The notes: generated by a model not told the origin, from the sequence alone. A stretch of 64,000 bases of DNA from an uncultured archaeon (GCA_964347045.1 CAYFXC010000011.1:1-64000); one strand, 5' to 3'. Shown: positions 5,883-10,768, counted from the stretch's first letter. Program-made: numbers and translations.

Positions 5883-7049
5883 GTGGTAGATCATCGAAGG
5901 TGGTTCTTTGCACTGTTTTTGCTGCACCTTTTCCTCTTCGCCTTTAACCTAGAAATTAGTTCCCAACAAAACGCCATACCAGTTCGCGATTACTGGCCAA
6001 CAGCAGGATGGCGCGGGGTTCAGCCTGAAGTACAGGGAATGAATTCAACTTTATTAGAGGAATTTTGGAATCTAATTCGCACAACCGGCGGCGTTGAGGG
6101 GTTTCTTGTAATCCGTAATGGATACCTGCTTTTTGAAGGATATGGTCCGGCTTCAAGTGTGAATCATCTTTGGCGGATCTATTCAGCTACAAAAAGTGTG
6201 ACAGCTATGGCCTTCGGTCTCGCTCTAACAGATGGATATGTTTCAAACGTTAACGATTCGGTTCTTGATTACTTTCCGAATCGAATCATTCAGAACCTAG
6301 ATCCCCGGAAATCCAACATGACGCTGTGGCATTTACTTACCATGTCCTCAGGTTTAGAACGCAGCGATTTTGGTTTGGGCTCACAACCAGACTGGGTGCA
6401 ATACCTTCTGAATTCACCCATGTCTAATGAACCTGGTGAGTTCTGGAACTATAATGGAGGGTGCAGTCATCTCCTTTCTGCAGTTATTTCTGAAACTATG
6501 GGTATCTCAATGGAAATCCTTGCTCGAAATCGACTTTTTACTCCTATGGGGATTTCAATGTATGAATGGGGTGCCGATCCTCAAGGTGTTAGTACTGGAA
6601 TGGCAGGTCTTAGCCTGACATTACGAGATCTAGCAAAACTTGGGTACCTGTATTTGAATAATGGGACTTGGAATACATTAGAACTCATACCGGCTGAATG
6701 GGTCGCCGAATGTACATACCCACACTTCGTTTTTCCATATGGCGAAGGATATGGTTATCAATGGTGGGTGGATATTCCTATCAACGGTTATTCGATGCGG
6801 GGTGCAGGGGGTATTCGAGTCTTTGTGCTTCCAGACCAAGATCTAGTTCTTGCCTTTGGTGCTGCTCCCTACAGTTCTCAAGAATACTATACTTATTTCG
6901 AGGAATATCTCTTTCCAGCTATTATTGGTGAAATCTCCAGTCTTCCTACTCCGACAAGGGAACAGCTTCTCTCATTCTTAATCGGAGGGTTGGTTGTTGC
7001 CGGTTTAGTTATTATTGGGGCTCTTTTCTGGAAACGAAAAACCCGATAA
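5883..7049 (+). CDS. membrane-anchored serine hydrolase (beta-lactamase/AmpC family)
   Basis: SxxK (YSATKS), LLTMSSG, PGEFWNYN (catalytic Tyr), YGYQWW; signal peptide and C-terminal TM + KRKTR. Confidence 0.9.
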   Translation: MVDHRRWFFALFLLHLFLFAFNLEISSQQNAIPVRDYWPTAGWRGVQPEVQGMNSTLLEEFWNLIRTTGGVEGFLVIRNGYLLFEGYGPASSVNHLWRIYSATKSVTAMAFGLALTDGYVSNVNDSVLDYFPNRIIQNLDPRKSNMTLWHLLTMSSGLERSDFGLGSQPDWVQYLLNSPMSNEPGEFWNYNGGCSHLLSAVISETMGISMEILARNRLFTPMGISMYEWGADPQGVSTGMAGLSLTLRDLAKLGYLYLNNGTWNTLELIPAEWVAECTYPHFVFPYGEGYGYQWWVDIPINGYSMRGAGGIRVFVLPDQDLVLAFGAAPYSSQEYYTYFEEYLFPAIIGEISSLPTPTREQLLSFLIGGLVVAGLVIIGALFWKRKTR

Positions 7050-7201
7050 TTGCTCTTTTCATATGTTCAGTATCTCGGAATGAATTTGTACTACCTTCAC
7101 ACAGGCAAAAACCTTTTTCTGTTGTTTTCCTAAACCTTGATTGAAGCCAAGCGAAAGATTCCGAAAACATTGTTTCTGTCTAGGTAAGAAGGTGACTTAT
7201 T

Positions 7202-8218
7202 ATTCCTCGAGGACTTGTCCTTAGTCAATGGGACACGAAAGAAGGACTCAAGATATTATCCAAATATCCAGCTACTTTGGACTTTGAAATAAGTGACTTA
7301 TCCCTCATGTACTATGGGTCTGCACCTGAAGGTAATGGGACATCTTTCCAAGTGTTTCCCTCAATCGAGGTGAAGGAACGCGCTGCTGTTGCCTGTACCC
7401 GCACGCCACTTAAAAGCACCGAAGACGATATCTGTATCACTGTTTTACTGACTGCTGAGGAAGAAGGCGCTGCATATGAGGAAATTCTAAACAAAACGTT
7501 GCAGCGTATCGTAAAAACGAGTGGAAACCCTGCGAACAGAAGACGTAGGTACCGGCAAATTCTATCCGATAGTTATCGAAAAATTGAACGTCGTGGGGGA
7601 TCTCGCGATCAATCTCTTTGTCCCTACATGTATGAAAGACCCATCAAAGACAATAAGTTGACGTCATTTTGTCGGGTTGTAAAGAAACAATGCTATCTAA
7701 CCATCTACGAGATGCCGGGATACCCACAATGTCCCCGCTATATTCGTCGACAACGCCAAATTCAATTGTCTAATGCACGACAACTTGTCCGAGCCGGAAT
7801 TCGTCGCATCCTCGAGGATTATGATCATGAACGACAAAAGTTCAAAGACAAAAAAATAGGGAATTGGGGCGAACCGGTTCACGCAATTCTTGATCGTTTG
7901 TTCTCAATTCTGGAAGTAGAAGCAGAAACCGAAGACTATGCTCACAACGTTGTTGAATATGTAGGTAAAAAGGGGTTATTTCAAGGACATCCTAGACCTA
8001 TCATTGCTGCTTCCATTGCCTATTACAGTGCGAAACAGATTGGAGATTCAATACCCGAAAATGATATAATCGAACTTGTAGGTTGTTCACGTACCTCCCT
8101 GCGTCGCAATTATCGGGAACTTCGTACTCTCCTAAGTTCAGATGAGAAGAAACTCCCCAAACACAAACGAAAGCGACGCATGACGTCTCAAGAAAAAGCA
8201 ATTACTCGTACCGAATAA
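7202..8218 (+). CDS. uDENN/longin-like domain + Cys4 motif + TFIIB cyclin-repeat fusion protein (proposed ATT start)
   Basis: Frame is open upstream of track start 7277 to TGA 7193-7195; ATT 7202 gives IPRGLVLSQWDTKEGLKILSKYP, colinear with MPKGLSVCRWDDKVGLRVVGVYP of the 9299 gene; SD GGTGA 7191-7195; C-terminal KGLFQGHPRPIIAASIAYYSAK..IPENDIIELVGCSRTSLRRNYREL matches the TFB second repeat. Confidence 0.8.
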   Translation: MPRGLVLSQWDTKEGLKILSKYPATLDFEISDLSLMYYGSAPEGNGTSFQVFPSIEVKERAAVACTRTPLKSTEDDICITVLLTAEEEGAAYEEILNKTLQRIVKTSGNPANRRRRYRQILSDSYRKIERRGGSRDQSLCPYMYERPIKDNKLTSFCRVVKKQCYLTIYEMPGYPQCPRYIRRQRQIQLSNARQLVRAGIRRILEDYDHERQKFKDKKIGNWGEPVHAILDRLFSILEVEAETEDYAHNVVEYVGKKGLFQGHPRPIIAASIAYYSAKQIGDSIPENDIIELVGCSRTSLRRNYRELRTLLSSDEKKLPKHKRKRRMTSQEKAITRTE

Positions 8219-8239: not shown

Positions 8240-9109
8240 ATGATTCACAACGTCTTCCTAATGACTCGCGACGGACGCCTGGCATTCCACCGCCAATACT
8301 GGTCAGTTGATATTACCACCGAAGAACGCCAAGAATTTCTAGCCACCTATAAACATTTCGAATCCGAACTTGGCACTCAAGTTGACTTACCAATCCATGT
8401 CAAGAATATAAAATTCATTTACGCCGAAGCGGGCACACACCTCCTCCTCGTCTTCGCCGTCGATATGAGTGACGAAGATGAAAAAATCAAAGAAACTCTG
8501 AAAAAAACCCGTGAATTCCTTATCAACAATTTTGGTCATGAAATTGATGCATACATCCAAAAGCCGGTTCCCCTTGGTGAAGCGTTCAAAGGCTTCGCAA
8601 CCGAACTCGACAATGTCATTGTTACTATGCTTAAAATTTGCCTACTTGGTCAAGGCGGTGTTGGAAAATCTACGATGCTCAAACTTCTTACTGCAGACAG
8701 CATCCCGGGAGATTACTACCCCACTATTGCTGTCGATATTGAAACCCTCCAAGGCGTTCGCTTCGGTCCCTATGAGTTAGCTGTCTGGGACTTTGCTGGT
8801 CAAGATCGATTCCGTTCATTATGGAATTATTATTTACGGAATGCTGATGCAGTGTTACTTGTTACAGATTCAACGCTAAAGAACGTTCTCGAAACCCGAG
8901 ACATCCTTGAGGTTGTTCGCAAGAACTCTCCCTCATCCATTGTCTGGGCGATTGGAAATAAGCAAGATCTTCCTGGCGCGTTAGCGCCCAAACTAGTCCA
9001 ACGAATTCTCGGCGTTCAAGCCTATGGGCTCGTTGCCATTGATCCACGCTACCGCGAAGTTCTCTACAAAATTATTTTAGGGGCTGTGGCTGAAGCCACC
9101 ACCGATTAA
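8240..9109 (+). CDS. longin domain-Arf-like small GTPase fusion
   Basis: N-terminal MIHNVFLMTRDGRLAFHRQY (AP-sigma/longin type); G1 GQGGVGKS, G2 PTI, G3 WDFAGQDRFRSLW, G4 GNKQD. Confidence 0.9.
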   Translation: MIHNVFLMTRDGRLAFHRQYWSVDITTEERQEFLATYKHFESELGTQVDLPIHVKNIKFIYAEAGTHLLLVFAVDMSDEDEKIKETLKKTREFLINNFGHEIDAYIQKPVPLGEAFKGFATELDNVIVTMLKICLLGQGGVGKSTMLKLLTADSIPGDYYPTIAVDIETLQGVRFGPYELAVWDFAGQDRFRSLWNYYLRNADAVLLVTDSTLKNVLETRDILEVVRKNSPSSIVWAIGNKQDLPGALAPKLVQRILGVQAYGLVAIDPRYREVLYKIILGAVAEATTD

Positions 9110-9298: not shown

Positions 9299-10768
9299 AT
9301 GCCAAAAGGTCTAAGTGTTTGCCGGTGGGACGACAAAGTCGGTCTTCGCGTCGTTGGCGTTTATCCTCGAAATCTTGATGTGTCTGAAGACGACATGCTT
9401 CGTGTCTTCACGGCACATGCCATGGGAAAGCCGGAAGCGGGATTTCTAACCATGACTCTCGAAGGAACCAATATGGCTGTAAGTAGTTTCTATACTGGGA
9501 TTCTTCGTGGTCGTGATCAATTTTGCATTATGCTGTTTATGGATTTGGAGGAGGAACCTCGAGCATATGAAGAGGGATTGACGCTTGCCTCAAGTGAGAT
9601 TGTGGAAAATATTGGAGAGCCAGAATTTGTTGAGTATCTTGGTGAAGTTTTTGAGAAGCTGAAACGTATGGTGGAGCTGTCTGTGGAGCAGCGACTTGCC
9701 AAAGTGTTTGTTGATCAAGAAACCCGGTTGCTTATGCACAAGCTGGCTCGCGGAGGGATTCCCGCTGAGGAGCTGCGTGAGTGGCTCGAATTACAGACAG
9801 GGAAACATTATCCGGATTTAGGACTTGTGACATTGCCGCTGTTACGAAGTGGGCTAGTTGAAGAAGATTGGATTAACGCTGTATCAGATAACTGCGTATT
9901 TTTAGTCAATGATCTACTGGGTGCCCGATTTCCACCCGAACAATCACTTAAACTAGCCAAAGGTGGCGGATTGAATAGGGAGCAGTATCGTGAATATGAA
10001 AACCGCATTAAGAGCTTATTTGAGGGATATCAATGGACTGAAGAAGATACGATTATGATTGGACAACTTCTTCTCGATCCGGATATTTATGATGTGACCA
10101 AAACATTGCGGCGGAAGATTGCGCAAAAATCTGAGTTGAAAGGGGTTGTTGAGAAGGAAGCTTCGTTGGATAATGTGCTACGACGTTTAGAGCAAGCACA
10201 AGTGATTACACAAATGGGCACGGACTCCATCGAGATTTCTAAAAAAGATGATCCCCTGATTATGCTGACAGCAGATGTGCACTTTGAATCATTCTTTCCT
10301 GAGTTCTTGGTGCTTCGTATCCAGGAGCGTTTAGAGGCAAAGGATATTCATCCCGATATAGCGAAGCGGCATTTGGAATTACTTAGTGAGACCTATATGC
10401 GTATGCGTGAGAAAATGAAAGAACGCAAGAAACGCAAGAAGGAAGAGGGTGAAGAAGAACTTCCTGAAATGGAAGCGGAAATGGCACCACCTCCTGAACT
10501 CGCTGAAGTTGAACCACCCGAAACCGCTGATTTGCCCCCTGTAGATGAAGCAGAAGCAAAACGCATCCAGAAGGAAGAAGAAAAGAAGCGGAAAGAGGAA
10601 GAAAAACGCCTTAAAGAAGAAGAAAAGAAAAAGAAGAAAGAGGAAGAGCGAAAACGGAAAGAGGATGAAAAGAAGCTGAAAGAAGAAGAGAAACAAAAGA
10701 AGAAGGAAGAGGAAGAAAAGAAGAAAAAAGAAGCTGAGAAGAAAAAGAAAGAAAAGGAAGGTTCATAA
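9299..10768 (+). CDS. uDENN/longin-like + tandem winged-helix protein with E/K-rich charged tail
   Basis: ATG 9299 with GGGAG SD (preferred over 9140); W-D-x-x-x-G...YP uDENN-type N-terminus; two wHTH-like segments (LPLLRSGLVEE; LRRLEQAQVI); E/K tail. Confidence 0.75.
   Translation: MPKGLSVCRWDDKVGLRVVGVYPRNLDVSEDDMLRVFTAHAMGKPEAGFLTMTLEGTNMAVSSFYTGILRGRDQFCIMLFMDLEEEPRAYEEGLTLASSEIVENIGEPEFVEYLGEVFEKLKRMVELSVEQRLAKVFVDQETRLLMHKLARGGIPAEELREWLELQTGKHYPDLGLVTLPLLRSGLVEEDWINAVSDNCVFLVNDLLGARFPPEQSLKLAKGGGLNREQYREYENRIKSLFEGYQWTEEDTIMIGQLLLDPDIYDVTKTLRRKIAQKSELKGVVEKEASLDNVLRRLEQAQVITQMGTDSIEISKKDDPLIMLTADVHFESFFPEFLVLRIQERLEAKDIHPDIAKRHLELLSETYMRMREKMKERKKRKKEEGEEELPEMEAEMAPPPELAEVEPPETADLPPVDEAEAKRIQKEEEKKRKEEEKRLKEEEKKKKKEEERKRKEDEKKLKEEEKQKKKEEEEKKKKEAEKKKKEKEGS
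10561..10765 (+). repeat. purine-rich low-complexity coding repeat encoding an E/K/R single-alpha-helix-like tail
   Basis: EEEKKRKEEEKRLKEEEKKKKKEEERKRKEDEKKLKEEEKQKKKEEEE pattern; near-pure GAA/AAG codons. Confidence 0.85.

Follow-up and report, generated by a model that had tools for sequence, protein, structure and literature searches.

A longin domain joined to a four-cysteine module and a single TFB-type cyclin repeat, encoded beside an Arf-like GTPase in one family of Asgard archaea

The protein described here is encoded in a 64,000-nucleotide stretch of DNA from an uncultured archaeon (GCA_964347045.1, CAYFXC010000011.1:1-64000; hereafter the window). When read from the ATT codon at position 7202 on the plus strand its gene occupies positions 7202-8218 and specifies a product of 338 amino acids with four parts: a longin domain, a module with four cysteine residues (Cys4 module), a long basic helix and one cyclin repeat of the transcription factor B (TFB) type. 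The gene, referred to below as the longin-TFB gene, is real, strongly conserved and specific to one GTDB family of Asgard archaea, of which it is a core gene. We favour, with moderate confidence, a reading in which the product would regulate by binding DNA and would be coupled, by way of its longin domain, to the Arf-like GTPase encoded next to it (gene 2), probably together with the product of the gene that follows (gene 3). The protein would in that case hint at a direct link from GTPase signalling to gene control.

Asgard archaea have many eukaryote-like small GTPases as well as longin and roadblock regulators, and it is hard to tell which regulators and which output belong to a given GTPase. 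The locus described here is a fixed three-gene module which offers a defined GTPase together with two candidate longin partners, and the biochemistry of the proposed output, DNA binding by a TFB helix-turn-helix (HTH), is easy to assay. The combination of longin domain, Cys4 module and TFB repeat is a new domain architecture and a new module made from known parts, confined to one uncultured family. We found no description of a longin plus TFIIB architecture, or of an Asgard longin plus cyclin architecture, in the full-text literature, in agreement with a first-pass annotation of this DNA, made from the sequence, which knew of no such protein. Also new are the start-codon statistics, the assignment of the cyclin repeat to TFB repeat 2 against the six TFBs of the same genome, the family-wide distribution and the conserved upstream blocks. 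The positions of all features are collected in Table 1.

Table 1. Features of the longin-TFB gene, its upstream region and its operon partners (window positions).
Feature	Position	Strand	Remarks
Block 1, TTCAGTATCTCGGAATGAAT	7066-7085	+	Nearly invariant in 13 aligned upstream regions; candidate regulator site
Block 2, GCAAAAACCTTTTTCTG	7105-7121	+	Invariant core in 13 loci
Block 3, AAACCTTGATTGAAGCCAAGCGAAAGATT	7131-7160	+	Conserved in 13 loci; possible transcription start or operator
Shine-Dalgarno core AGGTGA	7190-7195	+	Ends in the in-frame TGA stop that bounds the open frame upstream
ATT start codon	7202-7204	+	ATT or ATC in all orthologs; AUC in most
Longin domain, FLCN/NPRL/C9orf72 type (aa 1-131)	7202-7594	+	N-terminal hairpin xPxGLxxxxWDxKxGL
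Cys4 module (aa 132-180)	7595-7741	+	C140, C157, C164, C177; invariant P141, Y144, P178, R179, Y180
Long basic helix (aa 178-215)	7733-7846	+	pI 11.5; mean identity 73%
Single TFIIB-type cyclin repeat (aa 223-313)	7868-8140	+	Five helices; preceded by a single long helix
HTH (helices 4-5 of the cyclin repeat)	8057-8140	+	Most conserved part of the protein
Basic tail and stop codon	8141-8218	+	Poorly conserved; pI 10.6 in this genome
Gene 2, longin plus Arf-like small GTPase (289 aa)	8240-9109	+	Pfam Roc/Arf/Ras matches
Gene 3, longin plus two winged-helix domains, long helix and E/K-rich tail	9299-10768	+	BLASTP E 4e-14 to the longin-TFB protein

Relatives and distribution

A search of 5.8 billion proteins returned 42 relatives of the longin-TFB protein with 50-88% identity, all of them from Asgard metagenome-assembled genomes which were mostly labelled Hermodarchaeota. 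Precomputed Pfam domains for these relatives comprised one TFIIB match and otherwise none. Some orthologs are labelled "cyclin family protein" at NCBI. The full-length gene was present in all 18 genomes of the GTDB family to which the window belongs (Hermodarchaeota-type, two genera); about 381 other Asgard genomes all lacked it, their matches being confined to the longin part and falling on gene 3-like proteins. Conservation within the family differed along the protein, with mean pairwise identities of 82% for the HTH, 77% for the Cys4 module, 73% for the basic helix, 60% for the longin domain and 35% for the tail.

Reading frame and start codon

The frame is open from 7196 to the stop codon at 8216-8218 and is preceded by an in-frame TGA at 7193-7195; between this TGA and a TTG codon at 7277, where the called ORF (7277-8218, same frame) begins, it contains no ATG, GTG or TTG. 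The start region was compared across 20 loci, comprising the window, three contigs found via their proteins and 16 genome contigs. The arrangement AGGTG(A/T)-N6-AT(T/C)-CCN was present in every one of them, with complete conservation of AGGTG at -12 to -8 and of the AT and CC bases at 0, 1, 3 and 4. Codons 0, 1, 3, 4 and 5 specify I, P, G, L and V in all loci by means of two to five different codons each, and codons -1 and -2 specify five to seven different residues, so that the ATY codon marks precisely where, in 20/20 loci, residues become conserved while their codons vary synonymously. The TGA within the Shine-Dalgarno (SD) sequence doubles as the in-frame stop in 15 of the 20, 19 have no in-frame canonical start upstream of the ATY codon, and the first canonical start downstream shifts between codon 6 and codon 36.

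Two further observations came from comparison with the paralog gene 3, whose Met1 codon (ATG or TTG) aligns on the ATY codon and whose N-terminus matches residues 1-22 residue for residue, and from an AF2 model of the protein, in which residues 1-22 form the longin strands β1 and β2. On the basis of the SD spacing, the onset of conservation, the fold of residues 1-25 and the paralog alignment, we therefore place the start of translation at 7202 on AUU. By this comparative evidence the N-terminal extension is real and is initiated at AUU or AUC. The ATT start had been proposed in the first-pass annotation, which would have been contradicted by homologs lacking the extension upstream of 7277; the homologs keep it. 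To our knowledge ATT and ATC starts are hardly documented in archaea, and the longin-TFB gene ranks with the clearest cases in which comparison points to conserved initiation at AUU/AUC in an archaeon.

Genes 2 and 3 start with ATG or TTG in all loci. A weak start codon behind a strong SD sequence suggests that low, fixed expression of the longin-TFB protein relative to its partners has been selected. A genome-wide habit of ATY starts was considered and rejected, as a survey of 2252 long ORFs yielded one other non-trivial candidate with an SD sequence and a near-cognate codon. That candidate (G000:C21:11600, plus strand) has AGGTGA-N6-ATT and a 234-aa product beginning I-P, with the first canonical start 53 codons downstream.

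The longin domain

The AF2 model was built from a 35-sequence alignment and had a mean pLDDT of 78. Prediction from 7202 gave a longin domain at residues 1-131 and a cyclin repeat at residues 223-313, and the model, the alignment and profile searches together bore out the order of parts given in the first-pass annotation (longin domain, C-x16-C-x6-C-x12-C, single C-terminal TFB repeat with its HTH). The predicted topology of residues 1-131, β-β-α-β-β-β-α-α, is that of the longin fold. The top structural match was a Lokiarchaeal longin (8yqg_B; Z 13.6, rmsd 3.3 Å, 132 residues), and others were NPRL2 in GATOR1 (8fw5_B, Z 12.8), chain 6nzd_H of the folliculin FLCN-FNIP2 complex (Z 10.6) and Lst4 (Z 9.9), after which SNARE and TRAPP longins ranked. 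The nearest clusters of predicted structures were NPRL2, Avl9/uDENN and C9orf72, while an ESM Atlas feature search gave no usable match for the protein. In its fold and nearest structural neighbours the domain is similar to the longins of NPRL2-NPRL3 (GATOR1), FLCN-FNIP and C9orf72-SMCR8 and to the "FLCN/SMCR8-type" Asgard longins (PMC12290439).

The hairpin motif listed in Table 1 is common to the longin-TFB protein and gene 3 and places WDxxxG in the β1-β2 hairpin. W10-D11 is invariant in both paralog families and lies four residues before G15, and the W-D-x3-G spacing is the same as in C9orf72, in which W33-D34...G38-P39 is functionally essential (PMC12290439). A GP motif at the start of β2, a feature of longin GAP-type regulators (PMC12290439), was not found in the longin-TFB protein or in gene 3, since the residue after the invariant G15 is L, I or V in all cases and not P. 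No invariant arginine was found in the β4-β5 loop of the longin-TFB protein, the loop in which the arginine finger of NPRL2 (R78) lies. By alignment and model, the β4-β5 hairpin contains the nearly invariant R67 and, at position 70, a residue that is often basic. R60, which is invariant, was considered as an arginine finger and rejected on topology, as it is situated at the opposite end of β4 from the WD-G hairpin. Judged by these motifs, the longin-TFB protein carries the signature of GAP-type longins only partly.

A single cyclin repeat related to TFB

The cyclin repeat matched TFB of P. woesei (1ais_B) with Z 14.8 and rmsd 2.2 Å over 93 residues and human TFIIB with Z 14.4, and many cyclins matched at Z 12-13. 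A profile of the family matched approximately 125 TFB/TFIIB proteins among 1.8 billion representatives (E 1e-11 to 1e-3), most often on their second repeat. Pfam TFIIB was touched by 26 of 35 family members, and the NCBIfam TFB model aligned to the protein at model positions 225-306 of 312. Six canonical two-repeat TFB paralogs with Zn ribbons are encoded in the same 2.6-Mb genome (G000 contigs C1, C4 with two in tandem, C5, C7 and C8). An HMM of the cyclin repeat scored 9-22 bits on the second repeat of each of these TFBs and 3-7 bits on the first, which makes the HTH-bearing repeat 2 of TFB its closest counterpart. In the recognition helix the longin-TFB protein has CSRTSLRRNYREL and the TFBs of the genome have VTEVTVRNRYKEL, with several exposed positions changed; the scaffold and the arginines are kept, with an Arg-rich face RRNYREL in which R-x-x-Y-x-E-L is retained as in TFB.

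In contrast to TFB and TFIIB, with which the protein has in common a five-helix cyclin repeat and HTH that are homologous by sequence and structure, it has an altered recognition helix and no Zn ribbon, B-reader, B-linker or first repeat, and it differs from any TFB in carrying an N-terminal longin domain and a Cys4 module. Searches with Pfam and NCBIfam gave no Zn ribbon match (CxxC...CxxC, PF08271), the N-terminus instead being the longin fold, and the four cysteines are single and not in CxxC pairs. One five-helix repeat, not two in tandem, was present in the model. B-reader and first repeat gave no Pfam match, and an HMM of the middle region returned only negative bit scores against the six TFBs of the genome (domain i-Evalue 0.5 or worse). 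The protein is not a TFB or TFIIB, as it lacks two of their defining features, in line with the statement in the first-pass annotation that it could not be a normal TFB. The same annotation would have been contradicted by a C-terminal domain without a cyclin fold, and a cyclin fold was found. The NCBI name "cyclin family protein" mirrors the fold only: the sequence similarity is to TFIIB rather than Cyclin_N, and there is a single repeat, not the two cyclin boxes of CDK-binding cyclins.

The Cys4 module and the basic segments

C140, C157, C164 and C177, arranged as C-x16-C-x6-C-x12-C, are invariant in all 35 family members, and invariant residues are also numerous in the last 90 aa of the protein. 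The module was modelled with moderate confidence (pLDDT 51-77) as a β-hairpin (residues 143-157) followed by a short helix; C164 and C177 each sit at the N-terminus of a helix, and an exhaustive profile search of 1.8 billion proteins gave no sequence relatives outside the family. The module is a probable metal site, whether for Zn or for Fe-S. We also considered that it might be a remodelled TFB Zn ribbon, since C-x16-C resembles the gap between ribbon knuckles; this is speculation which found no support in the sequence. The basic tail that had been described in the first-pass annotation is present in this genome, but in the second genus (L019-L022) a short, unrelated and non-basic tail takes its place.

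Operon partners

Gene 2 lies directly downstream of the longin-TFB gene in every locus with enough flanking sequence, at a distance of 21 nt in the window, and its product has 287-289 aa. The P-loop (G1), DxxGQ (G3) and NKxD (G4) motifs are intact, and the best solved relatives are Arf1 and Arf2 (E 3e-18). In the second genus the two genes share the sequence ATGA, the GTPase start ATG running into the longin-TFB stop codon, which implies translational coupling there. The N-terminal domain of gene 2 (8240-8620) is a longin of a different type, with a weak Clat_adaptor_s (sigma-adaptin-like) match and without the WD-G hairpin.

After a gap downstream of the GTPase gene is gene 3, with a product of about 430-540 aa across loci, which is the only other match in the genome to the longin domain of the longin-TFB protein. 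Its model (pLDDT 87) has a second winged helix that is ArsR/SmtB-like (Z 8-9), and NPRL3, FNIP2 and NPRL2 ranked first in a Foldseek search. The start of the gene 3 ORF at TTG 9140 is too early, by the segment 9140-9298, as orthologs and the paralog alignment place it at ATG 9299 (MPKGL...). The longin-TFB gene is always the first gene of the operon, and the gene order is fixed in all loci with enough flank. A complex prediction for the longin domains of the longin-TFB protein (1-135) and gene 3 (1-130) had a score of 0.01, which weighs neither for nor against binding.

Distant homologs of gene 3 (32-36% identity) were seen in Lokiarchaeia, at 7001-8752 of L035 and 7001-8734 of L036, where they sit directly after the L11-L1-L10-P1 ribosomal protein cluster with no longin-TFB gene nearby. 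Because these homologs have no such neighbour, the longin-TFB gene seems to have arisen by duplication of the gene 3 longin domain and its fusion to a piece of TFB.

Two paralogous longin proteins encoded beside a small GTPase are reminiscent of the eukaryotic longin GAP complexes, a likeness that is known here from genomic linkage. The likeness extends to C9orf72-SMCR8 in the spacing of the WDxxxG hairpin and in the Arf-like GTPase, here a genomic neighbour, as the C9orf72 complex is a GAP for Arf (PMC12290439). Unlike the eukaryotic longin GAPs, the longin-TFB protein has no DENN or NPRL C-terminal domain, has G-L and not G-P, has no clear arginine finger and carries an output domain from a basal transcription factor. 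The longin-GTPase architecture of gene 2 resembles the Asgard longin/roadblock-GTPase fusions (Tran et al. 2024, PMC10933270; PDB 8yqg), and the longin of the longin-TFB protein is closest to 8yqg. In MK-D1, GTPase genes generally do not share operons with genes for longin or roadblock proteins (Tran et al. 2024, PMC10933270); the operon described here is fixed in contrast to the cases in that work, in which no fusion to a transcription-factor domain was described.

Possible roles of the longin-TFB protein

In the reading that we favour, the HTH of the longin-TFB protein would bind DNA in a manner coupled to the nucleotide state of the gene 2 GTPase, through longin-longin or longin-GTPase contacts, and the protein would act as an effector of the GTPase or else join gene 3 in a heterodimeric longin platform; its level would be kept low by the weak AUU/AUC start. 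This reading is favoured because the longin domain is of the GTPase-regulator type, because the operon is fixed and the paralogy exclusive to gene 3, because purifying selection concentrates on the HTH, the Cys4 module and the basic helix, and because both longin paralogs carry folds of a DNA-binding type. Control through the longin domain had been suggested in the first-pass annotation and fits a conserved operon with a longin-GTPase and a paralogous longin protein. Counting against the reading are the recognition-helix residues that differ from TFB, and the G-L which replaces the GP motif of GAP-type longins together with the missing invariant arginine between β4 and β5. DNA binding need not follow from an HTH beside a longin domain, as the winged-helix-like C-terminal domains of NPRL2 and NPRL3 do not bind DNA, and we know of no case in which a single cyclin repeat alone binds DNA. 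If the favoured reading is true, a repeat of a basal transcription factor has here been put to new use as a signalling output.

A more far-reaching version, which we regard as doubtful, is that the operon is a self-contained switch from GTPase to promoter, in which the two WD-G longins form a heterodimer that sets the state of the Arf-like GTPase, and this state decides whether DNA is engaged. The TFB-derived HTH and the winged helices of gene 3 would then engage DNA depending on the nucleotide bound by the GTPase, a metal or redox input would come in through the Cys4 module, and the AUU/AUC start would set the stoichiometry. In eukaryotes, nutrient signalling by longin GAPs ends on transcription in the path from Rag/FLCN to TFEB, and such a switch, if true, would be its archaeal counterpart, built from a piece of the basal machinery.

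Foremost among the alternatives to the favoured reading, though in our view unlikely, is that the protein has no DNA role and is purely a regulator of the adjacent Arf-like GTPase, with the longin domain, probably paired with that of gene 3, acting as GAP or GEF and the Cys4 module and cyclin repeat serving as a protein scaffold. The longin type does match eukaryotic GAP and GEF longins, the hairpin has the C9orf72-like WDxxxG, a GTPase is encoded in the same operon, and cyclin folds, of which many match here, commonly bind proteins. By sequence, however, the repeat is specifically TFB repeat 2 and not a generic cyclin, conservation of the protein peaks in its HTH, on either side of which lie very basic segments, and the absence of the GP motif and the unclear arginine finger do not favour a GAP.

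It is quite improbable that the protein is a stand-alone transcription factor, with a longin domain for dimerisation or sensing of a small ligand, a Cys4 module that senses redox state, metal or Fe-S, and a linkage to the GTPase that reflects co-expression only. Four invariant cysteines in an anaerobe, the conserved HTH and basic helix, and conserved upstream blocks which are specific to the locus and might be autoregulatory sites (see below) would all suit such a factor, but its longin domain is of the GTPase-regulator type, its sole paralog is in the same operon, the gene order is fixed in all loci, and in one genus the gene overlaps that of the GTPase.

The first-pass annotation had raised the possibility of a dominant-negative TFB, that is, a decoy which would shut out canonical TFB by sitting on the TFB recognition element (BRE) or on TBP. 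The cyclin repeat is indeed a homolog of the one with which TFB reads BRE, and the six canonical TFBs of the genome would be possible competitors, yet we consider this role very unlikely. In solved TFB-TBP-DNA complexes the main contact with TBP is made by the first TFB repeat, which is absent here, and the recognition helix differs from those of all six TFBs at several positions, so competition for BRE is not expected; the weak start codon also suggests low abundance, a poor fit for a competitor.

Finally, an untranslated region upstream of 7277, with the product made from an internal canonical codon and the full-length gene non-functional, is extremely improbable: gene callers do place ortholog starts at various internal codons and archaeal ATT/ATC starts are scarcely documented, but the internal canonical starts vary in position, whereas the ATY codon has an SD sequence at fixed spacing, marks the onset of conservation with synonymous variation in 20/20 loci, and begins a segment (residues 1-25) that forms β1-β2 and aligns with the paralog N-terminus.

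Conserved DNA upstream of the operon

Three conserved blocks were found upstream of the longin-TFB gene between -136 and -42 (Table 1). Each occurs only once in the genome, and the gene next upstream differs between loci. The second genus (L019) keeps the core of block 2, AACCTTTTTC, at a similar distance. The idea that the leader RNA is structured or sequesters the SD sequence was considered and dropped. Block 2 can pair with the SD sequence, with no covariation and no stable fold; an Rfam scan of 6950-7300 gave no match, the consensus fold of the leader was weak (-2.65 kcal/mol, zero covarying pairs), and single-sequence folds were no more stable than shuffled sequences (z +0.3 to +1.7). With no stable or covarying RNA fold, the blocks are therefore read as DNA elements, likely of a promoter or operator, and possibly autoregulatory sites. 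A short upstream ORF (MFSISE) over block 1 was discarded, as it is not conserved across loci. A search of sequencing runs for this DNA returned the probable source metagenome and no RNA run. In block 2 an A-run is followed by a T-run, which suggests a BRE/TATA-like promoter layout.
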